From an uncultured Fusobacteriaceae bacterium (GTDB lineage: Bacteria > Fusobacteriota > Fusobacteriia > Fusobacteriales > Fusobacteriaceae), in the NCBI GenBank assembly GCA_964517235.1, contig CAZFBB010000023.1, forward strand, positions 1 to 25,668: DNA of 25,668 bases, in the 5' to 3' direction. Shown here piece after piece: positions 81-23,735 of this stretch. Each line of letters begins with the position of its first letter. Position 1 is the stretch's first letter. The notes under the pieces are model-generated. The model had not been told where the DNA came from and did not search any database. It saw only the letters and a list, made by a program, of their open reading frames with translations. The position numbers were made by a program, and so were the translations under genes.

Positions 81-950
81 TTATTTAGCTTCTTTTAACA
101 TCTTTTTGACATATGTAGGTAAAGCAAATGCACCTTTATGTATATCACTATTATAATACTTAGTATCTATAGAAAAATCTTCCCATATATCCTTTTTGTG
201 ATCTTTTATAGGGTGATATTTTTTTGAAGCAAATCCAAATAACCAATGACCTGACGCATATGTAGGCATATGAAATTGATAAACTTCTGCAATAGGAAAG
301 ATTTTATCTATTTTATTATGAGCTTTTTTCATTTCCTCTTTAAATACTTCATAATAAGGACTTTCATGTTGATTTACAAGTATACCTTCATCTGTTAATA
401 CTTTAAAGCAATTATTATAAAAATCTTCAGTAAAAAGTCCCTCTCCTACTGATATTGGATCTGTAGAATCTACTAAAATAAGATCGTATTGTCCACTTTT
501 ACATTCTTTAACAAACTGTAAACCATCTTTAAAATATAAAGTAACTCTTGGGTCTTCTAGTTTGTTTGATGTTAATGGAAGATATTTTTGAGAAAGTCTA
601 ACTACCCTTTCATCTATTTCTACCATATCTATTTTTTCTATATGTTTATATCGAGTAAGTTCTCTTACTGTACCACCGTCTCCACCACCAATTACTAATA
701 CTCTTTTTATATTAGGATTTGTTGCTAGAGGCACATGAGTAATCATATCATGGTATATAAATTCATCCTTTTCATTTACCATCATATATCCATCTAAAGT
801 AAAAAATATACCATATTCATTACTTTTAAAAAATTGTATCTCTTGAAATTCAGATTTTTCTGAATGTATTTGTTCCTTGACTTTTATAGAAAATCTTGTT
901 TCTTCACTCCATTTTTCAGTGAACCATAAATTTAACATTTTTACCTCCAA
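81..950 (-). CDS. speE: Spermidine synthase / polyamine aminopropyltransferase
   Basis: 289 aa. It carries the canonical aminopropyltransferase glycine-rich motif VLVIGGGDGG and a DSTDP acidic pocket, with an overall SpeE-like layout. A GGAGGT RBS lies 7 nt upstream of the ATG. It sits 22 bp downstream of speH in a typical speH-speE arrangement. Confidence 0.9.
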   Translation of the reverse strand: MEVKMLNLWFTEKWSEETRFSIKVKEQIHSEKSEFQEIQFFKSNEYGIFFTLDGYMMVNEKDEFIYHDMITHVPLATNPNIKRVLVIGGGDGGTVRELTRYKHIEKIDMVEIDERVVRLSQKYLPLTSNKLEDPRVTLYFKDGLQFVKECKSGQYDLILVDSTDPISVGEGLFTEDFYNNCFKVLTDEGILVNQHESPYYEVFKEEMKKAHNKIDKIFPIAEVYQFHMPTYASGHWLFGFASKKYHPIKDHKKDIWEDFSIDTKYYNSDIHKGAFALPTYVKKMLKEAK

Positions 951-972
951 TTGTAATTATTTTAAAATATAA

Positions 973-1389
973 TTATGCATTCTCAGGTTTAAAAGTTACT
1001 TTTCCCAATTTTTTTGGTGAAAATTTTTTAATTTTTTCTACCATTCCCCTTGGTATTTCAACAGACTCACTTCTATCTGCCTCAAATACTTTTTCTAAAT
1101 AATCAAATGCTATCCAAGGATTTATCTTGTCTCCACATGTAAAGACGTCAACTGCAGCATAACCATACTCTGGCCATGTATGTATAGCAAGGTGAGATTC
1201 TGATATAATTACTGCTCCGCTAACTCCATAGGGGTTAAAATGATGAAAAACCGAATCTACTATAGTTGCATTTGCAATTCTAGCAGCCTCATTCATGTGT
1301 TTTTCAATTAATTCTGGACTTGCCATTGTTTCTTCATTACAGTTGTAAAATTCAATTAAAATATGTCTTCCTAAAGTTTCTAATTTCAT
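973..1389 (-). CDS. speH: S-adenosylmethionine decarboxylase proenzyme, small pyruvoyl-dependent SpeH type
   Basis: The internal Met (MKLETLGRH...) gives 138 aa and is preceded by GGAGGAAAAA-ATG. Conserved motifs include ISESHLAIHTWPE, which holds the Glu-Ser self-cleavage site that forms the pyruvoyl group, and FTCG. The upstream 47 codons of the ORF-track ORF are AT-rich leader with no RBS. Confidence 0.85.
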   Translation of the reverse strand: MKLETLGRHILIEFYNCNEETMASPELIEKHMNEAARIANATIVDSVFHHFNPYGVSGAVIISESHLAIHTWPEYGYAAVDVFTCGDKINPWIAFDYLEKVFEADRSESVEIPRGMVEKIKKFSPKKLGKVTFKPENA

Positions 1390-2118
1390 TTTTTCCTCCA
1401 ATATTTTTATTAAACAAAAAGAAATTTTCTTTTTAAAAAAAATACTTACTATTACTAAACTTTCTTTACAGTTATTATATATAGTTAAATTAAAAATTTT
1501 TTGATAAACCCATTTCTTAAATTGTAACAAGTGTCTTTTAAAGAAAAACCTCTAAAATTCCTTTTAAATAAAGATAATAATTTACTAATAGTAATTATTA
1601 AGTTTACTTATGATAAACTTACCAAATAAATATATAATATTTCTAGTATATTGTCAACGATAATTTTGATGTTTTTTATAGATATTAACTTTTAAATTTA
1701 CTAATACTAAACTTTTTATTTCTAAATAAGAATAATTTAAATTATTTGTTTATAGTAAATAATCTTTATTATATATATTACCTTCTACTTTTTATTTCCT
1801 AAATCAATTATATACCTATATTTTTCAAAAAAAATTTTTTTTATTTATTTTTAGAGTTTTATAGGTAGATAAAATTGCTTTAATCTATAAAAAATTCTAA
1901 ATGTTTTTAAGAAGTTAAAATAATTTAAAAATATTTAATATAATCATAACTTTTAATGTGTAAATTAAGTTAATTGTCATTATTTTGTGTGCAAAGTTCA
2001 TCTCTTTTTAAGTTGGTTTTTGGAATTTTTTCTCATATAATTATATTAGAACAGGGGTATAAATATTGATATATTTATTTTTTATTTAAATTTTATTTAT
2101 CATTAGCTGGAGGTTATT

Positions 2119-12933: not shown

Positions 12934-14250
12934 TTATAATAATCTAGCTGCTAGTTCAGCTAATTCTGATCTTTCTCCCTTAACTAGAGTTATATGTCCT
13001 GCTAATTCAACATTTTTAAATCTTTCTGCAAGATATGTAAGTCCGTTACTGTTTGCATCTAAATAGGGATTATCTATTTGGTATGGATCTCCTGTAAATA
13101 CTATTTTAGTGTCTGCTCCAGCTCTAGTAACTATTGTTTTTATTTCATGTGGAGTTAAGTTTTGAGCTTCATCTATTATCAAGAATCCTTTAGGTATACT
13201 TCTACCTCTAATATATGTTAGAGCTTCTATTTTCAATAAACCCATACTTTCTAAACCTGTAATAACCTTTTCTCCACCTTTTTTATCTTCATTACCTTTA
13301 TTACTTGTTAAGAAATCAAAATTATCATAAATAGGTTGTACCCAAGGTCTTAATTTTTCCTTTTCTCCCCCTGGAAGGTAACCAATGTCTTTTCCCATGG
13401 GAATTATAGGTCTAGCAATAAAGATTTTTTTATATAAATTCCTTTCAACTACTTGTTCAAGAGCACTAGCAAGAGCCAAAAGTGTTTTTCCAGTACCTGC
13501 TTTTCCTACAAGGGTTACAACACGAATATTAGGATCCATAAGCATTTCTACAGCACATTCTTGCTCATTGTTTCTTCCTCTAATTCCCCACATTTCAATA
13601 CTAGAGAAATTAAGTTTTTCCAAACGTTTTTTATTTTTCTTATATACCCCTAAGTGAGATTTATTTTCACATTTTAAATTAAACATCTCATTTGCATAAG
13701 GTTCTTTGTCAAATACTTCTATATATTTTACTCTACCTGCTTTAATAAATTTTTTATAGGGCTCTTCTTCTACTTCTATATCACTAAATCCACTATACAA
13801 TTCTGATATATCATATGTATCAGTTTCATAATCTTCTACTTTGAGGGACATAGAGTCTGCTTTTATACGCATATTTATATCTTTTGTAACGAGTATTACT
13901 GGATCTTTTGCATTCTTTTTTACCTCTAATGCAGTAGCCAAGATTCTATTATCCATTACATCTTTTTTGATGAAAAATGGTAATTGGGTTACATCACCAT
14001 TTATTTCTACAAATAATTTCCCACCATTATTAAGGCAAACGCCTTCAACTAAACTTCCTTTTTTTCTAAGGTCGTCTATAGATCTGGCTACAACTCTGGC
14101 ATTCCTACCTCTTTCACCATCTGCTCTCTTTAATGTATCGATCTCTTCAATTACATATATTGGTATTACTACATCATTATCAGCAAAACTAAAAATTGCC
14201 TTTGGGTCATGTATAAGTACATTTGTATCTAAAACATATACTTTTTTCAT
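12934..14250 (-). CDS. PhoH-like ATPase with N-terminal PIN domain (PhoH2 / YlaK family)
   Basis: 438 aa. AAGGAGG RBS with 8 nt spacer. The N-terminal PIN signature is YVLDTNVLIHDP, with acidic residues in place. The C-terminal PhoH P-loop has Walker A GKAGTGKT and Walker B FLIIDEAQN. Confidence 0.9.
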   Translation of the reverse strand: MKKVYVLDTNVLIHDPKAIFSFADNDVVIPIYVIEEIDTLKRADGERGRNARVVARSIDDLRKKGSLVEGVCLNNGGKLFVEINGDVTQLPFFIKKDVMDNRILATALEVKKNAKDPVILVTKDINMRIKADSMSLKVEDYETDTYDISELYSGFSDIEVEEEPYKKFIKAGRVKYIEVFDKEPYANEMFNLKCENKSHLGVYKKNKKRLEKLNFSSIEMWGIRGRNNEQECAVEMLMDPNIRVVTLVGKAGTGKTLLALASALEQVVERNLYKKIFIARPIIPMGKDIGYLPGGEKEKLRPWVQPIYDNFDFLTSNKGNEDKKGGEKVITGLESMGLLKIEALTYIRGRSIPKGFLIIDEAQNLTPHEIKTIVTRAGADTKIVFTGDPYQIDNPYLDANSNGLTYLAERFKNVELAGHITLVKGERSELAELAARLL

Positions 14251-14725: not shown

Positions 14726-17700
14726 TTATTTTTTATTAAATAATTCACCTAATACCTTCAAATTGATTCCGATTTTGCTTAATTCTTCTACCACTTGCAA
14801 TACTCCCTTTTCATTTGAATTACTTTTATTTTCAAGGAATATTTTTTTAATTTCATTCCATCTAGCTAAAGAAGGATTATCTAATCTATCACTAATTTCT
14901 CTAAATTTTAATAAACTAGCTTCTGAATCACTTGCCAAAGTTTGAGCATCATTCTCATAAGCTTTTAGAATAAGATTTCTTATTTCATCCTCATTCATAA
15001 CAGGTACTATACGTTCAGCAATTTTATTCATATTTCTATATGAACCTTGTAGTTTAAATGGAGGTTCTACTCTATATTTGTCATTTTGACTAGCAGAAGT
15101 AATATACTCTATATTTACCCTTAGTATTTCATCTCTTACTTTTATCATATTAGATAAAAGTGATGAATATTCTTCTATGTCCCCTTCAGTATAATTTCCT
15201 TCTAATTCTATCTCTTCTCTATTTCCAACTTGAACAGCATTTATTAGTTTATATGTATCTTCTTGGTTTTTCATATATAATTTGTTCAAATATGGATTTG
15301 AAGTCATAGCATTTTCTAAATAAGATAGTTTAAAAGCTTCTTTATTTTCTCTAAGCATATCTCCAAGGTTGTAAACATCGGCTCTATTTGCTAGCATGTC
15401 TGGTATTTGAAACTTATCTCCACTTTCAGTATAAGGGTTTCCTGCCATTACTACTGCTACTTTCTTGCCCCTAAATTCATATGATTTACTCCTACCTTGC
15501 CATATACCTTCTATCTTACGTTGTCCATCGCATAGAGAAATAAATTTTTGTAAAAATTCAGGATTAGAATGTTGTATATCATCTAAATAGATAATTACAT
15601 TATTTCCCATTTCAAAGGCTAAATTCAATTTTTCAAGTTCCTCTTTGGCATTGGCATTTTTTGCTTCATTTGGGTCAAGACTAGTAATACCATGACCAAT
15701 AGTTGGGCAGTTAATCTTTATTAATAACATATTAAGTCTATTTGCAATATACTCCATAAGGGTAGTTTTACCATAACCGGGAGGTGAGATGAGTAGAAGC
15801 ATACCCATATTATCAGTTCTTTTATTTGCACCAGCAACACCTATTTGTTTGGCAAAATTATCTCCTATAAGAGGAAGATATACTTGATCTATAAGTTTAT
15901 TTCTAACAAAACTAGTTAAAACTTTTGGTTTTAACTCATTAAACTTAAGTTGGTATTTTCTATCTTCTATTAATTTATTCTTAAGTTTTTGGAAGTCATT
16001 AAATAATAATAAATTTTTACTTGTAAACTCTTCTAGTTTATAAAAAAAATCTACCAAATTAACTTCATATTTACCATTATCAATTAATTTATGTACTCCA
16101 ACAAGGTCATCTATCTTTATTTGACTTGATTCAGGTACTTTTCTTCTACTTTCCATATCTCCTATAAGATATAGGTTTTTCACTTCTTCAAAGTAACTAT
16201 TTTTATTTAGATTTTTATGACTTAAATAAGTATTGACCCATTCACTTATAAGTATATAGCTTCCATGTAAATCACCCCTTAATTTTTCTAGAGAGTGTTT
16301 AAAATCTTCCTTTGCATTTATACTTACTAAATAGTTGTTAAAATCTAGGTATAATTCTTCTCCTTCTTTACTAAGGATAAAGTTATTGTGTGAGCTAATT
16401 TCTAAAGCTAAATAGAGAGAAATTCTTTCTATATTAGCCCTAGGAAAAAAGTTATTATTTTCATAAAATTCTTCTACTCTATCTTTAAGATAAGGTATGA
16501 GCATATTTACAAAATTTCCACTTTTATGCCTGTTAATTATACTTAGTGTTTTAAGTCTAATTTCAATTTTACTTTTTTCTTCTTTATCTATACCAAAATT
16601 CCAAAGGTAATTAGCCATGGCTCTAACTTCAGGTTTATAAAGGGATAAACCAATTTCTTTGTTAGTTTTAACAATATTTTCAAGTATCTTTAAACTATCA
16701 ATATCATGAACTCCTTTGGTGTAGTATTCATTATAGTGACTTTCTACATATTTATCTACAAGCTTTTTAAGTCCTTCTCTACCTAAAGTATAAAGTTTAT
16801 CTAAAGAATTTTCATCTTCAAAAGATTTGAATATATTGTATGCTAAAAACTCTCCTCTATATACTTCCTGATTTTCACTTATAAGTTCTTGATTCCATAC
16901 ATATTCATATTTTGAAAGTAAACTTTCTTCTACTTTTTCAAAATAATCTGTACCACTTATATGATAATAAAATCTATCTCCTTTCCTTAAAAGAGTTAAT
17001 TCAGTTTTACCATCTGAAACTAAAAAGTTATTATTACCAAATTTAATAGTATTTCCATCAAGGAATAGTTCCTTTTTATCCTTTAATTGTTTAATACTAT
17101 TTTCTTTAAGACTTTTAAGTTTACTCTCAATCTCACTAGCTTTTGTAGCATCTCCTAATTTAATTAGGTTTTCTATAATATCTCTTATCTTTTCTACCAT
17201 TAAATCTGTAGAAAAAATTTCATTTATAGCTTTTAAGTCATCAATAGTCTTTAATCTATTACTTAAACCTTTAAAGACTCTTTCACTTGCATCAAATAAT
17301 GAATTAATTTTTTTATTCTTTTTTTCAATCAAACCTTGTTTTTTTTGAGTAAAGGCACTAACTATTTCTTCCCTTTTTTCTGTTAATTGTGGAATAAATT
17401 CTTCGAAATCACTAAATTTACTTTCTAATTCATCTATTTGAACTATTATTTTAGTCAAATAAGAATCTACTTTTTCTATAGTATCTGAAAGATTTAGATA
17501 ATTTGATATAGACTGAGTAATTAAATTTAATTTTGAGTAAAAGTCACTCTTTCTTTCTTTAGAATCCAAATTTTCAACTATATTATTCAATTTTGATTTA
17601 ATACCATTAAGTGTTGCAAATAGTGATGAAATTTTATCTATAATTTCAGAAGATTTAGTTGTGTCTTCTATCTTTAAACTATTAACAATAGTAATAAGTA

Positions 17701-19609
17701 ATTCTAGTTCTTCACTTATTCCTATTATTTTTTCTTCCAATTCTCTTCCATCAATTACTTTAGTAATATTTTCCAAGGTACCTTTACACTCTTCAACACT
17801 AGCAATATAAGGACCAAGACTTTCATCTAATAATAAGAAGTTAATGCAATCATCACTGATTTTTTCATTAGCTTCCCTAATGGCATTTGCCATTTTTTCA
17901 ACTTTTTCCAAATTCACAAATTGTAAATCTTTTAATCCTGTTATTTCTCCCCTTAATTTCCTTAATTTCCTTAGGTATAAAACAAAATCATTAATTTTTT
18001 CAAAAGTGGTGTATTTAATAGTTTTTAAGATGTTTTCACAAGCCTCTTCAACTTTTATACTTTCCTTTTTAGTTTCTTCCCTTATAAAATTTACTTTTTC
18101 ATATTCTTTTATAGCAATGGTAGCAGCCTCTTTTATTTTTAAAAGAGATTCTTTAAGACCAAAAGCTTCTTTTTTGTCAAGCCAAAAATAGTTGTTTATT
18201 ATAGTTTCAGTATCATTAACTATATCAACATAAAGTCCATAGTAACTATCTTCTCTTCTTATTAACTTGTAAAGAGTAGTAATATCAGCAATAGCTCTTA
18301 CAATGCTCTTATTACCAAGATTATATAAAAAAGAACCTTTAACTTCTTCATCTTCTACTTCTAAAGAAGCAGAAAAACTGGTTTCCCATATTTTTAAAGT
18401 ATGGTTACGTTTAGGTTCTAATTCTGCTTTGAAAACAGCCATGTGTCCATTGTCAAAGTGCGCATAACCACTGGCTATTATAGGTGGATTTGCATTTTGA
18501 TTAATTATATTATATGAATAAATATAATATTCTCCACTTTTGTGGTTATAAAAGATATACTGATAATCTTCTCCGTTTTGAGAAACTTTTTTTTCATTGA
18601 ATACTACATTTTCAAAATCAACATCAAATTTTGAAAAACCTCCACCACTTTGTCTAACTAGACCGTTTGGAACTAGGATACCATGGTTTTCAGGTAGAAG
18701 TATACATGCTTTTCCAATACTATCTATTCTATGAACTTCTTTAGTTTTTTGATTAAAAGTAAAGTATCTATAGTTTCTTTCTTGATATGGTTTAATTCTA
18801 AGAAGAATTATATTTCCTGTAATTGAGTAAGATATATCTCCATCATCAAGACTTTGATCTAAGTTTTCAACTGGTTCAGAATAGATTCCCTTTCCACTAT
18901 TTGTATTATTTTCTATTTTGAGAGTTAAATCTCCTCCAATAGTTTCAACAAATAATTTATCTTCTATACTAATGTGAGGATGTTCACCATTAACATGATC
19001 CTCTCTACTAGTTCTTTTCCATTCTATTTCTTGTTGCAAACCATAATTAACTTCATGTGATGATCTATTACCAGCATATTCTAATTTATCATCATTAACA
19101 AACCACTTAAAGGCTTTGATATTGGTAAAATCATTTCCATTTTGAAAAACCATATATAAATATCCATTTTTTTCAAAAAATTTAGTAAAAAAACTTTCTT
19201 TATAATATTTATATAAATCTTCAAATTCACTAAGAAATTTATCGTCTAATAGTAGGGAATAATCGGATTTGCTAAAACTTTCTCCATTGTATTCATAAAT
19301 ACTAAAAACGTCATTAATTTTTATTTTGCTTTTTAGTCCCATGTGAACATTGTAACCTAATATAACCTTGTTTCCTATGGGTACGATATCTCTTGGGATA
19401 CAGTTATTTTCAGTTAAGATAGCTTCTGTTTTTAGAAGTTTAGCAACTTTTTCCCCAAAAACATTAACTCTTTCTCTATTAAGTTTATCCAAACTACTTT
19501 TTAATTCACTAGATGTATCAAGTAATCTATTACGTATAACATTGTAGGCAGCAAAGGTCTCTTGACCTTTGCTACTTTTGCTTTCCTTTTTTTCTATATT
19601 ATCTTCCAT
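14726..19609 (-). CDS. Giant (1627 aa) multidomain protein with a beta-rich N-terminal region, long central coiled coil and a MoxR/McrB-type (AAA_5-like) ATPase module near the C-terminus
   Basis: AAGGGGG RBS 8 nt upstream of the ATG, which lies 11 bp after the flotillin stop. The AAA+ module has Walker A LLLISPPGYGKTT (about nt 15770-15800), Walker B NVIIYLDDIQH and a sensor region VAVVMAGNPYTESGDKFQIPDMLANRADVY. That sensor matches the NP...G...lP.al.nR pattern of AAA_5/MoxR/McrB ATPases. Residues about 480-860 are K/E/L/I-rich heptad-like coiled coil. The first about 450 aa are Tyr/Asn/Gly-rich, suggesting a beta fold. Confidence 0.8.
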   Translation of the reverse strand: MEDNIEKKESKSSKGQETFAAYNVIRNRLLDTSSELKSSLDKLNRERVNVFGEKVAKLLKTEAILTENNCIPRDIVPIGNKVILGYNVHMGLKSKIKINDVFSIYEYNGESFSKSDYSLLLDDKFLSEFEDLYKYYKESFFTKFFEKNGYLYMVFQNGNDFTNIKAFKWFVNDDKLEYAGNRSSHEVNYGLQQEIEWKRTSREDHVNGEHPHISIEDKLFVETIGGDLTLKIENNTNSGKGIYSEPVENLDQSLDDGDISYSITGNIILLRIKPYQERNYRYFTFNQKTKEVHRIDSIGKACILLPENHGILVPNGLVRQSGGGFSKFDVDFENVVFNEKKVSQNGEDYQYIFYNHKSGEYYIYSYNIINQNANPPIIASGYAHFDNGHMAVFKAELEPKRNHTLKIWETSFSASLEVEDEEVKGSFLYNLGNKSIVRAIADITTLYKLIRREDSYYGLYVDIVNDTETIINNYFWLDKKEAFGLKESLLKIKEAATIAIKEYEKVNFIREETKKESIKVEEACENILKTIKYTTFEKINDFVLYLRKLRKLRGEITGLKDLQFVNLEKVEKMANAIREANEKISDDCINFLLLDESLGPYIASVEECKGTLENITKVIDGRELEEKIIGISEELELLITIVNSLKIEDTTKSSEIIDKISSLFATLNGIKSKLNNIVENLDSKERKSDFYSKLNLITQSISNYLNLSDTIEKVDSYLTKIIVQIDELESKFSDFEEFIPQLTEKREEIVSAFTQKKQGLIEKKNKKINSLFDASERVFKGLSNRLKTIDDLKAINEIFSTDLMVEKIRDIIENLIKLGDATKASEIESKLKSLKENSIKQLKDKKELFLDGNTIKFGNNNFLVSDGKTELTLLRKGDRFYYHISGTDYFEKVEESLLSKYEYVWNQELISENQEVYRGEFLAYNIFKSFEDENSLDKLYTLGREGLKKLVDKYVESHYNEYYTKGVHDIDSLKILENIVKTNKEIGLSLYKPEVRAMANYLWNFGIDKEEKSKIEIRLKTLSIINRHKSGNFVNMLIPYLKDRVEEFYENNNFFPRANIERISLYLALEISSHNNFILSKEGEELYLDFNNYLVSINAKEDFKHSLEKLRGDLHGSYILISEWVNTYLSHKNLNKNSYFEEVKNLYLIGDMESRRKVPESSQIKIDDLVGVHKLIDNGKYEVNLVDFFYKLEEFTSKNLLLFNDFQKLKNKLIEDRKYQLKFNELKPKVLTSFVRNKLIDQVYLPLIGDNFAKQIGVAGANKRTDNMGMLLLISPPGYGKTTLMEYIANRLNMLLIKINCPTIGHGITSLDPNEAKNANAKEELEKLNLAFEMGNNVIIYLDDIQHSNPEFLQKFISLCDGQRKIEGIWQGRSKSYEFRGKKVAVVMAGNPYTESGDKFQIPDMLANRADVYNLGDMLRENKEAFKLSYLENAMTSNPYLNKLYMKNQEDTYKLINAVQVGNREEIELEGNYTEGDIEEYSSLLSNMIKVRDEILRVNIEYITSASQNDKYRVEPPFKLQGSYRNMNKIAERIVPVMNEDEIRNLILKAYENDAQTLASDSEASLLKFREISDRLDNPSLARWNEIKKIFLENKSNSNEKGVLQVVEELSKIGINLKVLGELFNKK

Positions 19610-19620
19610 TTATTTCCCCC

Positions 19621-21747
19621 TTAGTCCAATAATTCATGTACTGGGATATTTTCCATTCCTAATGACTTTATTTTTTCTATAGTTTTTAATATAAAGGGTT
19701 TCTTTTCATTACTGCTATTATCCATTAGGTTTAGTAGTGCAGAAGAGATAGTTAAATTTTTGATATCTTCTGTATTTATGCCAAATAAATCAACAAAATT
19801 TCTTAATTCTTCCTTAAATTTTCTTTGGTCTCCATTAAAAAATGTTTCTTTTACATCTTTTAAAACATGTGATTTATCAATTAAAGCATCTGCTTGTTTA
19901 CCAACAGTAATAGTTTTAATTAATTTATCAAAGAAGATACTGTCTCCACCAACAATGTCTATATTTGAGTTTTTAAGTCCTTCACTAACAACTTGAGCTT
20001 GAGCAAGGGCAATATCTTTTTGTATAGAGATTTGAGCAAGTTCAATTTCCTTCTCTTTATTAAGTCTAAGTTTAAATTCTTCATGTTCTCTACCAATAGC
20101 ATCAAATTCCTTCATAGCTTGAGCTTTTTCATTGATACCTTCAGCTTCGGCTACTGCTTTTTCTTTTATTACTTTAGCTTCAGCTACACCTTCTGCTTCT
20201 ACTCCCTTAGCAGTAGCAAGTTTTTCAGCTTCAATACCTTTTGCAATTGCAGTTGCTTCTTTTTCTATAGCTTCAGCTTTTGCATCAGCTTCAAGTTTAG
20301 TTACTTTTGCTTTTGCAATACCTTCAACTTCAATAGCTTCAGCTCTAGCTTTTATAACTCTAGCTTCTGATACTCCCTCAACAGCAGCTTCTTCTGCTCT
20401 TGCATCAGCAATAACTTTTGTTGCTTCAGCTTGCTTAAATGAAGTTTTTAAATTTGTTTCAGCAATAACTATATCCTTTTCAGCTTTTATCTCAGCTGAT
20501 TTTTTGTCAGCTTCAGCTTCTTTAATTCTATCAATTACTTTTACTTCTGCATCAGCTTCAGCAAGAGTTATACTAACTTTTTTCTTTCTATCAGCTTCAG
20601 CAAACTCTTTAGTATCTTTTATTTTTTCCTCTTCGAGTACAACTGATTTTTGTACCATTACTCTTTCTTTTATTACTTCTTGTATATTTTTATTTTCTTC
20701 CTCTACTTTTTTATTTTTTTCAATTTGTGCAAGAGTAACTATCTTTTCTCTTTCAGTCTTTTCCAATTCTCTTTGTTTTTCAACTCTTTCTGATTCGATA
20801 GCTTCAGTTGCTTCTTTTGCTTTTTGAGCAACAATAACAGATCTTTGTTTGTTTTCTTCTAAAATTGAAAGTTCTTCATCAGTTTTAATTCTTGCTTGTT
20901 CATACTTAAATCTTTCTTCTTCAGCAACAGTTTTAATTTGAGAATCTTCTCTGCTTTGTATAGTTTTAATTTCTCTTTCTTGTTTTGCTTCTGCTTCTGC
21001 TTGTTGTTTTTCAAGTTCTAGAATTGCTTCTCTAGCACTTACATCTTGTTCTTTAATAGTTTTTTCTTTGTCTCTTTGGATTTGATTTGCTTTAACCATT
21101 TCAGAGGCAGTTTTTTCTGTGATTTTTTTGATACCTTCAGAATCTAATACATTATCTGGATTTAAGAATTTAAGCTCTGTTTGTTCTAGATAATCAATGG
21201 CTGCATCTTCCAGTTTATATCCATTTAAGTCTTCACCAATAACTTGTAGTATCTCCTCTTTAAATTGAACTCTTTCAGTATAAAGTTGGACAAAATCAAA
21301 CTTTTTACCAGCTGTTTTAAGTGCTTCAGAAAATTTCGCATCAAAAAACTCCATAAGAGTGCTAGAATCAGATGCTTTTTGAGTTCCTAAAGCTTTTGCA
21401 ACTTTTAAAACATCTTCTTGATTGTCATTTACCTTTACGAAAAAGGCTACTCTAATATCAGCTCTTAAATTATCCTTACAAATTAGTCCATCCTTACCTT
21501 CTCTAGCTATTTCAACTCTCTTAACTGAAATATTCATTATTTCCCAGTTATGAAGTATAGGGACTACCCACATACCTGTAAATGATACTTTTGAACCTCC
21601 AAGCCCATTTCTCACTATAGCTTTTCCTTGTGTAACTTTTTTGTAAAATAATTTTAAAACTAGTGGAAAACCAATAAATAGTAGTCCAAAAACTCCCCAA
21701 GCTACTGTAGCTAATAATTTAAAAAGGTTTGTATCAAAATTTTCCAT
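19621..21747 (-). CDS. Flotillin-family SPFH/band-7 protein (YqiK-like) with an N-terminal membrane anchor and a long Ala/Glu/Lys-rich coiled coil
   Basis: 708 aa. AGGAGGA RBS. An N-terminal transmembrane helix (LFKLLATVAWGVFGLLFIGFPLVL) is followed by an SPFH core (AIVRNGLGG.KVSF, GLICKDNLRADIRVAFFVKV). The EA-repeat region (AEAKAEAIEKEATAIAKGIEAEKLATAKGVEAEGVAEAKVIKEKAVAEAEG) is typical of flotillin/YqiK. Confidence 0.85.
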   Translation of the reverse strand: MENFDTNLFKLLATVAWGVFGLLFIGFPLVLKLFYKKVTQGKAIVRNGLGGSKVSFTGMWVVPILHNWEIMNISVKRVEIAREGKDGLICKDNLRADIRVAFFVKVNDNQEDVLKVAKALGTQKASDSSTLMEFFDAKFSEALKTAGKKFDFVQLYTERVQFKEEILQVIGEDLNGYKLEDAAIDYLEQTELKFLNPDNVLDSEGIKKITEKTASEMVKANQIQRDKEKTIKEQDVSAREAILELEKQQAEAEAKQEREIKTIQSREDSQIKTVAEEERFKYEQARIKTDEELSILEENKQRSVIVAQKAKEATEAIESERVEKQRELEKTEREKIVTLAQIEKNKKVEEENKNIQEVIKERVMVQKSVVLEEEKIKDTKEFAEADRKKKVSITLAEADAEVKVIDRIKEAEADKKSAEIKAEKDIVIAETNLKTSFKQAEATKVIADARAEEAAVEGVSEARVIKARAEAIEVEGIAKAKVTKLEADAKAEAIEKEATAIAKGIEAEKLATAKGVEAEGVAEAKVIKEKAVAEAEGINEKAQAMKEFDAIGREHEEFKLRLNKEKEIELAQISIQKDIALAQAQVVSEGLKNSNIDIVGGDSIFFDKLIKTITVGKQADALIDKSHVLKDVKETFFNGDQRKFKEELRNFVDLFGINTEDIKNLTISSALLNLMDNSSNEKKPFILKTIEKIKSLGMENIPVHELLD

Positions 21748-21759
21748 TCAAATATCCTC

Positions 21760-22233
21760 CTAATTTTTTTTGTATAAATAATCTATAGCAATGTCTTCTA
21801 CATTAACTATATTTTTATTGATATTGTTCAATCTAACTAATATTTCTTTTTTATAATTTTTACTTCTACTCTCTAAACTTTCATAATTGTATATTTTACT
21901 AACTTCAATCAAAATACTTTCCAAATCTATAATAAGATTTCCATTGGTGTTTTTTTCGTTTATATAATTAATCCCTTGGTCTATAGTCACTTTACTATAG
22001 ACTTTTCCTTTAACCTCAAAGGGGATATTATCTTTGCTTTGTAAATTTTCAGTAAATTTAAATGGAATAACTTTGATAGTACTATCTATAATAGTTATTT
22101 TTTGAAAGATAATATTGTAAATGACAAGGGTTTCTGTAATTTTTTCTCCCAAAAGTCCTTTTACTATAATTAATTCATTTAATTTTGCTTTTTTTACTCT
22201 AAAAGTTAAAAGAATAAAAAGTATAGTTCCCAT
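21760..22233 (-). CDS. Small membrane protein with a single transmembrane helix (157 aa) and a beta-rich body. Possible truncated SPFH-like or NfeD-like fold.
   Basis: It lies 12 bp upstream of the flotillin gene. It has an N-terminal hydrophobic helix. The segment STIKVIPFKFTENLQSKDNIPFEVKGKVYSKV loosely resembles the TKDN...V.YRV strand region of SPFH domains. The RBS spacing is poor (GGGAGG is 19 nt from the ATG), so the start and even the coding status are less secure. Confidence 0.45.
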   Translation of the reverse strand: MGTILFILLTFRVKKAKLNELIIVKGLLGEKITETLVIYNIIFQKITIIDSTIKVIPFKFTENLQSKDNIPFEVKGKVYSKVTIDQGINYINEKNTNGNLIIDLESILIEVSKIYNYESLESRSKNYKKEILVRLNNINKNIVNVEDIAIDYLYKKN

Positions 22234-22247
22234 TAAAATATAAATAA

Positions 22248-22913
22248 TTATTCCTCCCTTTCATAAAGTTTTATAACTAAATAAACATCTCTTTCTTCTA
22301 CTTCTTCTATTATCTGTACTATGTCCTTTTTAAAAAGATGTTTTTCATTTGAAATTACATTTAAAAGTATTTCACTTCCATTTCCCCTTTTAATCAGGGC
22401 TTGTCCAAGTCTATTGGGTTCCAAACTAGTTTGCATAATAGCTCTTTTGCCAATAGGATTAAATGTGCAATCATCTTCTAATCCTTGAAAAAATGGTAAT
22501 AAGGGTTTAGTTAACCCCTTTGTCACTATTAAACTAGCATTCATATTAATTAATAGGAGAATGAAAGACATAAAAGACTTTGGACTAAAAGGAAAATAAT
22601 ATGTAAGCATAGTAAGTATCCATAAGATACAAATATAAATGGTAATATAAACCATAAATGGAATTGTATCCATATGAGAAAATTCCAAAAATTTTCTAAA
22701 AAATCCTGAATTATCTATTTCAACTTGCTCTGAATTATTAAAATCAAAATCTCCATCTATATCAAAATCTCTATCTATATCAAAATTAAAATCTAACATA
22801 TCTTGTGAAATAAATCCTAATATTACAAATATCCAATATAAAATTACAAAAGTTAAAAGTATTGTAACAATTGTATTTATACCAGTTATAGAAAATAATA
22901 AATATTCTTTCAT
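22248..22913 (-). CDS. YqiJ/DUF1449-like inner-membrane protein with an NfeD-type C-terminal beta-barrel. It is the first gene of the flotillin operon.
   Basis: 221 aa. AAAGGAG RBS. It has N-terminal transmembrane helices and an Asp-rich acidic loop (DFNFDIDRDFDIDGDFDFNN), then further hydrophobic segments. The C-terminus (GQALIKRGNGSEILLNVISNE...IVQIIEEVEERDVYLVIKL) fits an NfeD-like OB/beta-barrel pattern. The architecture and its position upstream of a flotillin gene match E. coli yqiJ-yqiK. Confidence 0.55.
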   Translation of the reverse strand: MKEYLLFSITGINTIVTILLTFVILYWIFVILGFISQDMLDFNFDIDRDFDIDGDFDFNNSEQVEIDNSGFFRKFLEFSHMDTIPFMVYITIYICILWILTMLTYYFPFSPKSFMSFILLLINMNASLIVTKGLTKPLLPFFQGLEDDCTFNPIGKRAIMQTSLEPNRLGQALIKRGNGSEILLNVISNEKHLFKKDIVQIIEEVEERDVYLVIKLYEREE

Positions 22914-22960
22914 AATTGACTCCTTTCAAGAATAATTTGTATAATATTTTATATAAAAAA

Positions 22961-22989
22961 ATTTTATCAAATTTATTTATAAAATGCAA
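22961..22989 (-). promoter_or_regulatory. Candidate sigma70 promoter for the yqiJ-like/flotillin/giant-ATPase operon (-35 TTGCAT, 17 nt spacer, -10 TAAAAT)
   Basis: Read on the minus strand about 45-75 nt upstream of the 22913 start codon. The region is AT-rich, so chance matches are likely. Confidence 0.25.
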
Positions 22990-23417
22990 TGTATAAATTT
23001 TTCAACTATAATTTTTGTAATAATTTAAATAAAAATGTTGAAAATAGTTAAATTTTCACTTTAGATTATTGAAATAAAGAAAAATTATTACTGTAACTGC
23101 TCTCTTACTAAACCTGTATAAGGGGGTTTGAAAAAAGTTTTAATATGTATCAACCTAGTGATTTCTATGATTGTTAAGGCTAAATCCCACCCTATTTATA
23201 TCTAATATTTTAAGAAATATTTACCTCTACTTTTTATGTTGATAATTGCTCAAATCTCTATCTATTTCTTTAAACCAAGTTAACTCTTTTTTAAAGTGTT
23301 GATTATCTTCCTTCTTTTAAAATTCAATTTTTTCATTAAGAAGACGATTATATGCAAATCTGACATAAGCAAAAGTCTTATGGATTAAAGTTAGTAGTTC
23401 TTGATTTTTAATAAATA

Positions 23418-23540
23418 AAGAAGGATTTATTCAAGGTAGATTCAGTTATGTTACTAAAACCTTGTATAATTTTTCTATCAAGATAAAAACAATGATATTT
23501 TTTAAAAGCTATCTGTTTGTCTTCAACCTGATAATGATTT
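23418..23540. repeat. Copy 3 (inverted orientation, shorter) of the dispersed intergenic repeat family, upstream of the flotillin operon
   Basis: gaaggatttattcaaggtagattcagttatgttact...tatcaagataaaaacaatgatattttttaaaagctatctgtttgtcttcaacctg matches the reverse complement of 5260-5380 (ctgaataaggaagatttatccgacgtagattcagttatgtctc...tatcaagacaaaagtaatgatgttttttttaaaaactaattatttgtctttgacctg). Confidence 0.6.
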
Positions 23541-23735
23541 TATTTTTTTAATTTAGGAAATTATTATATTTTATTATATAGTAAAATTAATTAAATAATT
23601 TTAGTAGAAGATAAGTTTTTTATGTGGAACTGTAGTTTAAAAAGGTTTTTAACTATTAATTATTTTCTATATTAAGTGTCATATATAATATAGTTTATTT
23701 GAAAGATAGCTCGACCTAAATGGTCAAGCTATATA

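Follow-up and report, generated by a model that had tools for sequence, protein, structure and literature searches.

Organization of the four-gene locus

The window analysed here is a 25,668-nucleotide stretch of contig CAZFBB010000023.1 (assembly GCA_964517235.1) from an uncultured Fusobacteriaceae bacterium, with a G+C content of ~25%. On its minus strand it carries four closely spaced genes that encode a YqiJ-like membrane protein, a small SPFH-like protein, a flotillin and a giant AAA+ ATPase. We read these genes as a membrane module in which an ATPase is paired with a flotillin scaffold. The basis of this reading, presented below, consists of protein homologies, domain architecture, conserved gene order and a link to PspA. 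The preliminary description of this DNA had listed four co-directional genes 11-14 bp apart, and the open reading frame (ORF) calls agreed with it exactly:

22248-22913, minus strand: YqiJ-like membrane protein, 221 amino acids (aa), first gene
21760-22233, minus strand: small, truncated SPFH-like paralogue, 157 aa, second gene
19621-21747, minus strand: flotillin of the YqiK/SPFH2 family, 708 aa, third gene
14726-19609, minus strand: giant AAA+ ATPase of the DUF3686 family, 1627 aa, fourth gene

In gene order, the intergenic gaps were 14, 12 and 11 bp, and each ATG was preceded, 6-9 nt upstream, by a strong Shine-Dalgarno sequence (GGGAGG, AGGAGG, AAGGGGGA and AAAGGAG, respectively). As read from the DNA, the four genes fit a single transcription unit, and we infer that they are co-transcribed and translationally coupled.

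The giant ATPase is a DUF3686 protein with a MoxR-type core

The 1627-aa protein had been considered not placeable in any named family. However, it matched Pfam DUF3686 (PF12458), a family whose function is uncharacterised, over the full length of the model (aa 35-475, aligned with model positions 1-448 of 448), and the score of 524 bits exceeded the cut-off of 25 (E = 2.8e-157). DUF7902 was matched at aa 597-676 (E = 1.1e-19), and aa 1271-1394 scored above cut-off with both AAA (E = 9.6e-8) and AAA_5 (E = 2.2e-6) of Pfam. More than 2600 homologues of the ATPase, ~1600-1900 aa long, were found. DUF3686 is a compact family that, at 50% identity, accounts for 614 clusters in a set of 1.84 billion representatives. 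The domain was always N-terminal in proteins of ~1600-1900 aa, and shorter entries resembled fragments. Hydropathy analysis revealed no transmembrane segment in the ATPase. The ratio of nonsynonymous to synonymous substitution rates (dN/dS) of its gene was 0.07 relative to the nearest relative of the locus, L081 (GCA_040777765.1, contig JBEVUE011806024.1), which shares 84% nucleotide identity over 8.4 kb.

Confident AlphaFold2 models were obtained for two segments of the ATPase, with 40 homologues each. The model of aa 1-700 had a predicted local distance difference test score (pLDDT) of 84.3 and a predicted template modelling score (pTM) of 0.70; that of aa 850-1627 had a pLDDT of 84 and a pTM of 0.67. 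The predicted parts of the protein, from the N-terminus, are the following:

aa 17-51: long helix (AlphaFold2)
aa 57-409 (18383-19441, minus strand): beta-rich, propeller-like domain (AlphaFold2 and Foldseek)
aa ~427-850 (17060-18331, minus strand): helical spacer that includes DUF7902, with helical bundles modelled at aa 427-699
aa ~854-892: small beta unit (AlphaFold2)
aa ~896-1149: helical domain (AlphaFold2)
aa ~1255-1420 (15350-15847, minus strand): AAA+ core, followed by a helical lid and tail

The beta-rich N-terminus noted previously thus reappeared in the model as a domain at aa 57-409. The coiled coil of ~400 aa that had been placed behind it held in part: a helical region of ~420 aa is present, but it was modelled as stacked helical bundles and not as one continuous coil. 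The propeller and helical layout of aa 1-700 (17510-19609) recalls proteins of the protocoatomer type; the resemblance is architectural only, with low template modelling (TM) scores.

Foldseek comparison of the beta domain with the PDB returned KLHDC3 (Kelch), CyRPA, Cdc20, the N-terminus of clathrin heavy chain, IFT-A and Vps18. The E values of these beta-propeller matches ranged from 1e-6 to 1e-4, and target-normalised TM-scores were only 0.3-0.37; we therefore call the domain a divergent propeller-like fold. Segment aa 1-700 matched the N-terminus of clathrin heavy chain, IFT-A, Vps18 and a nucleoporin, in which a beta-propeller is joined to a helical region. Such matches would fit a coat-like, tethering or anchoring apparatus, in which the propeller and helical region are structural and the AAA+ part only regulates assembly. 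However, the fold matches that suggest this apparatus are all low-scoring, and we consider it improbable.

The structural neighbours of the AAA+ core were MoxR, midasin and dynein, with CbbQ and NorQ closest, and RuvB was not among them. Together with the AAA_5 match, these neighbours bear out the earlier assignment of a MoxR/AAA_5-type ATPase. The motifs quoted at that time were all present and invariant across 41 homologues: Walker A PPGYGKTT at aa 1276-1283 (GYGKTT, with K1281), Walker B YLDDIQ at aa 1341-1346, and the sensor region NPYTESG...IPDMLANR at aa 1391-1409, which contains sensor-1 N1391 and the conserved R1409. In all 41 aligned homologues Walker B reads D-D and not the canonical D-E (hhhhDE); both residues, D1343 and D1344 (15574-15579, minus strand), are invariant. 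The catalytic glutamate is thus systematically replaced, and ATP hydrolysis may be slow, regulated or partner-dependent. When a profile of 14 ATPase sequences was searched against PDB sequences, matches were confined to Walker A (E ~1e-3), and no solved structure was related past the P-loop.

Database names for the homologues include "DNA repair ATPase" (NCBI) and "Holliday junction resolvasome helicase subunit". A function in DNA repair would agree with these names, with the title of Pfam DUF3686 and with weak RuvB matches in the P-loop region (24 bits; PDB E ~2e-3). However, the 24 bits obtained with the RuvB equivalog compare with cut-offs of 282-299 and cover ~50 residues round Walker A. 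No DNA-binding or nuclease domain was found in the domain scans, and the structural neighbours named above are not RuvB. Moreover, the conserved partners of the ATPase are membrane proteins (see below), and no repair gene was present among the conserved neighbours. We found no support for the label "DNA repair ATPase", the sole basis of which is the Pfam title and the 50-residue RuvB match at Walker A, and such a function is extremely unlikely.

The YqiJ-like protein and the flotillin

The YqiJ-like protein has at least two clear hydrophobic segments by hydropathy (~aa 5-40 and 82-106) and a probable third (aa 110-135), together with a loop rich in acidic D residues and a soluble domain at the C-terminus; it is of the YqiJ/YuaF (NfeD2-like) type. 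Its score with Pfam YqiJ_N (22.6 bits, E = 1.2e-4) was slightly below the cut-off of 23, and 14 of its 56 orthologues matched this model. BLASTP revealed no similarity to Escherichia coli YqiJ, the match being at profile level only: hhalign aligned a 56-member family profile with E. coli YqiJ over 186 columns (96.7%, E = 4.7e-10). At that level, the first gene is a YqiJ homologue, as had been proposed.

The flotillin has an N-terminal transmembrane segment (aa 8-34, by hydropathy), an SPFH domain (aa 38-180), a long coiled coil with an E/A-rich repeat (~aa 390-540) and a conserved C-terminal region. Its first 260 aa matched Band_7 (PF01145) above cut-off (E = 6.4e-9, 36.5 bits). The full-length protein gave no match in Pfam and no sequence match in the PDB, probably because of the HMMER composition filter; aa 1-260 alone likewise gave no PDB sequence match. 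BLASTP with E. coli YqiK showed 29% identity over 452 aa (E = 1e-51), and a profile of 57 flotillin orthologues aligned with YqiK almost from end to end (hhalign, 100%, E = 5.5e-43; positions 1-681 against 1-549 of 553). With its membrane anchor, SPFH domain, coiled coil, near-full-length YqiK homology and an NfeD2/YqiJ gene upstream, the protein has the features of the SPFH2/YqiK type. The Band_7 match, the YqiK homology and the position of the repeat agree with its earlier description as a 708-aa flotillin with an EA-rich coiled coil. Relative to L081, dN/dS of the flotillin gene was 0.05.

Two plus-strand ORFs, at 19993-20370 (125 aa) and 20132-20827 (231 aa), lie antisense over the part of the flotillin gene that encodes the E/A-rich repeat. 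High-GC homologues show this artefact too, with antisense ORFs of 700 aa (cluster 10). We take these ORFs to be by-products of repeat composition and not genes.

A lineage-specific SPFH paralogue

The 157-aa protein aligned with a profile of flotillin N-termini over 147 columns (hhalign, 91%, E = 9e-7) and corresponds to an SPFH core without the coiled coil. It had no match in Pfam, NCBIfam or PADLOC, and tblastn searches of 80 related loci with this gene gave no match. The gene was intact in L081, with 71% aa identity and a dN/dS of 0.24. We read the ORF as a real, lineage-specific, truncated SPFH paralogue that is under purifying selection. The product had been described as a small single-transmembrane protein. 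In the window, the N-terminal hydrophobic stretch is ~11 residues long, with a Kyte-Doolittle 19-residue maximum of 1.25, and this assignment is therefore not secure; in L081, a longer hydrophobic stretch is encoded in frame further upstream. A Sphingobacteriales locus (L010, 6939-7490) had an unrelated, independent SPFH-like gene of 183 aa in the same slot. The two genes suggest that a mini-SPFH partner has been gained repeatedly.

Conservation of the module across bacteria

For each species, one genome was scanned with a pattern to collect related loci; more than 592 loci encoded the ATPase, and 80 of these were kept. Sixty-two had 3.2 kb or more of DNA upstream and were informative, and flotillin and YqiJ-like genes were counted in them by tblastn. 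A full-length flotillin homologue (37-61% identity) was present directly upstream of the ATPase gene, on the same strand, in 59 of the 62 loci, and a YqiJ-like gene lay upstream of the flotillin in 52. The 80 loci came from seven phyla: Bacillota, Bacteroidota, Planctomycetota, Verrucomicrobiota, Desulfobacterota, Kiritimatiellota and Omnitrophota. For Fusobacteriota, named homologues of the ATPase itself were found. In all, at least eight phyla share the gene set. The preliminary description had set beforehand, as a check, whether the flotillin-ATPase association is conserved beyond this lineage, and these counts show that it is. Identity of the ATPases across phyla was 39-62% over 1600 aa; this range and the dN/dS values of 0.05-0.07 for the flotillin and ATPase genes, which indicate strong purifying selection, fit a housekeeping-type machine. 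Apart from the flotillin and YqiJ-like genes, no neighbour was conserved across phyla among the sampled loci.

In 17 loci, all from Bacteroidota, a PspA_IM30 gene was present upstream of the module. Thirteen of these also had a CesT_Tir_1 protein, and 15 had a divergently transcribed regulator with helix-turn-helix (HTH) and peptidase-S24 domains. The family matches of the upstream genes were strong (CesT_Tir_1, E = 4e-54; PspA_IM30, E = 4e-41). The presence of PspA, CesT and S24 genes in the Bacteroidota versions connects the module with the envelope-stress system of PspA.

The interval between flotillin and ATPase genes contained 1-3 variable small ORFs in 19 loci (L011, L017, L024, L036, L077 and 14 others). 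Two of them were scanned: the L024 product was a DUF3784 membrane protein, and that of L017 was DMP19-like with a lipoprotein signal. Such small proteins could be clients or adaptors of the module. An HKD phospholipase D (PLD)-like gene was found near the module in six loci (L011, 3235-3930; L071, 4332-5012; L077, 1302-1787; L041; L076; L079). This gene was the source of the only repeated PADLOC matches in the flanks (DrmC, MkoC and DpdK models). In L081, the module adjoins a gene for a 510-aa ankyrin-repeat protein, and, to judge by the accession number JBEVUE011806024, the assembly apparently comprises many millions of contigs; the L081 organism may be host-associated or a contaminant in a eukaryote genome project.

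An abortive-infection module had been among the functions offered for this operon. As an anti-phage defence system, the proteins would sense infection at the membrane. Defence systems often contain giant ATPases and membrane effectors, 3 of 129 flanking proteins matched generic PLD-type models (DrmC, MkoC, DpdK), and the Bacteroidota versions have PspA and a LexA-like S24 regulator. However, a search of PADLOC-DB v2 with the four proteins gave no convincing match; the best, at E = 0.0017, covered only a short stretch at the P-loop. The 129 flanking proteins from the 80 loci showed no enrichment of defence genes. The context within the window is housekeeping (speE, speD, holA, transporters, an aminotransferase), with no mobile-element genes nearby. 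The family is also compact, with a fixed architecture and a dN/dS of 0.07, unlike fast-diversifying defence genes. A role in defence thus gained no support and is very unlikely.

Flanking features and neighbouring genes

The features around the four genes are the following:

22970-22941, minus strand: promoter-like site TTGATA-18-TATTAT, just 5' of the first gene; a consensus match only
22914-23735: non-coding, AT-rich stretch of 820 bp upstream of the operon, with no ORF of at least 80 aa
14562-14580, minus strand: GC-rich hairpin GGGAGCTC-ttt-GAGCTCCC, ~150 nt past the ATPase stop, read from the sequence
12934-14250, minus strand: PhoH2 gene (PIN and PhoH domains), 438 aa, downstream of the operon and co-directional with it; carries a promoter-like site and a ribosome-binding site of its own

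A promoter consensus scan of the window gave 72 matches against 70 expected in shuffled sequence, i.e. no excess. The 820-bp upstream stretch had no Rfam match, no tRNA and, by tblastn, no remnant of PspA or CesT; in Bacteroidota, PspA and CesT genes fill this position. Rfam and tRNA scans of the whole window were empty. The hairpin past the ATPase gene is a possible operon terminator; it escaped the terminator scan for lack of a T-run immediately behind it. PhoH2 was considered as a fifth operon gene and dropped: it has its own promoter-like site and ribosome-binding site, and its adjacency is not conserved. In L081, PhoH2 is 97% identical, and a PfkB gene lies between it and the operon.

Genes for spermidine synthase and AdoMet decarboxylase are located at 81-1530 (minus strand), ~13 kb from the operon. 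PspA operons have been found recurrently linked to polyamine genes (Ravi et al., PMC11237479). At that distance from the present operon, the polyamine genes are probably a coincidence.

Proposed role of the ATPase

The module bears on the assembly and turnover of bacterial flotillin microdomains and on their coupling to membrane repair. To our knowledge, no characterised bacterial flotillin/NfeD pair has a known energy source. An ATPase that adjoins flotillin in at least seven phyla, with 39-62% identity, is a strong candidate for the missing active component.

We propose that an SPFH/NfeD oligomer would form at the cytoplasmic membrane face, built from the YqiJ-like protein and from the flotillin, which is held by its N-terminal transmembrane anchor. 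The ATPase has no transmembrane segment, and the flotillin has a single N-terminal one with the rest soluble; both would therefore be on the cytoplasmic side. The soluble ATPase would oligomerise through its MoxR-type AAA+ module, reach the scaffold by means of the helical spacer and dock on it by the propeller-like domain. ATP would power the assembly, disassembly or recycling of the scaffold, or the loading and unloading of clients, in membrane maintenance or an envelope-stress response. The analogy would be with Vps4 acting on ESCRT-III/PspA-type polymers, or with FtsH inside the HflK/C cage. We give this mechanism as a whole a probability of about 45%. Membrane remodelling or repair was one of the roles offered previously; the neighbourhood favours it because of the PspA link in Bacteroidota, and the role itself is still something that we infer.

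Several points weigh against the proposed mechanism. The modelled propeller depends on matches with low TM-scores, and with a D-D Walker B, ATP hydrolysis may be slow or regulated. Three loci (L025, L033 and L072) have the ATPase but no adjacent flotillin. E. coli yqiJK works without such an ATPase, which indicates that the ATPase is not required for flotillin function generally. Furthermore, no von Willebrand factor A (VWA) protein was detected in a search that covered the four operon proteins (Pfam) and the conserved neighbour clusters.

The ATPase might alternatively be a client-directed chaperone or extractor. The flotillin/NfeD proteins would then form a holdase platform, and the ATPase would unfold, extract or insert the membrane proteins held there instead of acting on the scaffold. 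The structures nearest to its MoxR-type core, CbbQ and NorQ, are activases that act on other proteins, and S. aureus FloA-NfeD is reported to be an ATP-independent holdase (cited in PMC13086221). In addition, the Bacteroidota operons contain a CesT/Tir-like chaperone gene, and variable small membrane proteins or lipoproteins lie between flotillin and ATPase in the 19 loci described above. However, no client gene or VWA adaptor gene is conserved, and the scaffold proteins are the only universal partners. We consider a client-directed chaperone unlikely; the present data do not separate it from scaffold remodelling.

The proposed action of the ATPase on the scaffold can be put in a more specific form, namely that the DUF3686 ATPase is a dedicated, ATP-driven assembly and disassembly factor for flotillin/NfeD cages and, where present, PspA polymers. 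This form is doubtful. If true, the ATPase would be the first known energy-consuming regulator of flotillin microdomains and a bacterial counterpart, with a MoxR core, of Vps4 on ESCRT-III. The ATPase links flotillins to the PspA/ESCRT-III stress system. An ATPase published as a "novel AAA+ ATPase" is now tied to a searchable family, DUF3686 with DUF7902, and its synteny has been quantified. Cultivable carriers of the module are available in Flavobacterium, Bacteroides, Hymenobacter, Pontibacter, Orenia and Clostridium intestinale.

Comparison with known systems

The pairing of NfeD2 with SPFH2 (YqiJ-YqiK) dates from Hinderhofer et al. 2009 (PMC2636767). The window shares with E. coli yqiJ-yqiK the gene order, near-full-length homology to YqiK and profile-level homology to YqiJ. 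In E. coli, however, no ATPase gene lies downstream, and yqiK is followed by sibD/ibsD. The window flotillin is 155 aa longer than E. coli YqiK, mostly in the coiled coil and E/A repeat.

MoxR proteins are ~250-500 aa long and are usually paired with a VWA protein. In contrast to members of this family such as CbbQ, NorQ and RavA, the window ATPase is 1627 aa long, and its core is preceded by a propeller-like domain and by helical domains that total ~800 aa. Walker B of the MoxR family has DE, whereas that of the window ATPase has DD.

Among SPFH systems, the QmcA-YbbJ pair of SPFH and NfeD proteins forms a cytoplasmic cage, and in FtsH-HflKC an SPFH cage works with an AAA+ partner (both cited in PMC13086221). 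PspA is a bacterial relative of ESCRT-III (Ravi et al., PMC11237479). The window module resembles FtsH-HflK/C and Vps4-ESCRT-III/PspA in combining an AAA+ enzyme with an SPFH cage or a membrane-remodelling polymer, a likeness by functional analogy only. FtsH and Vps4 belong to the classical AAA+ clade, whereas the window ATPase belongs to the MoxR clade and has neither a protease domain nor a transmembrane segment.

The nearest system is the operon described by Ravi et al. 2024 (PMC11237479; mSystems 9:e00847-23; preprint 2020), in which a CesT/Tir-PspA dyad is combined with three further genes. These include a three-transmembrane YqiJ/YuaF protein, a flotillin and an AAA+ ATPase that has a coiled coil and, at its N-terminus, beta-propeller repeats. 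A PLD is present in some of these operons; abbreviated, PspA-less operons are more widely distributed and may work with PspA encoded elsewhere. The Dokdonia donghaensis example in their table (ANH61663.1) corresponds gene for gene to the Bacteroidota loci collected here, including the divergent HTH-protease regulator. The window shares with their operon the YqiJ-like gene and the flotillin, with the propeller-like/helical/AAA+ ATPase directly downstream on the same strand. Searches by tblastn with PspA, CesT_Tir, HTH-S24 and PLD queries found nothing in the window or L081, and the window thus represents the abbreviated form.

The system had been put forward as undescribed, but both the full and the abbreviated operon are already in that paper, and the window locus is very probably a member of the same module. 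The grouping made in that paper and the one obtained here were arrived at independently. Ravi et al. neither assigned the ATPase to a Pfam family nor reported experiments, whereas here the protein is tied to DUF3686 and DUF7902; literature searches returned no paper containing "DUF3686", and those that paired flotillin or YqiK with such an ATPase returned nothing on this protein. A further difference from the published operon is the truncated SPFH paralogue of the window, located after the YqiJ-like gene and before the flotillin; it has no mention in the paper. The locus is thus one more instance of a recorded, computationally defined module, and its new part is the lineage-specific addition of a small SPFH gene.

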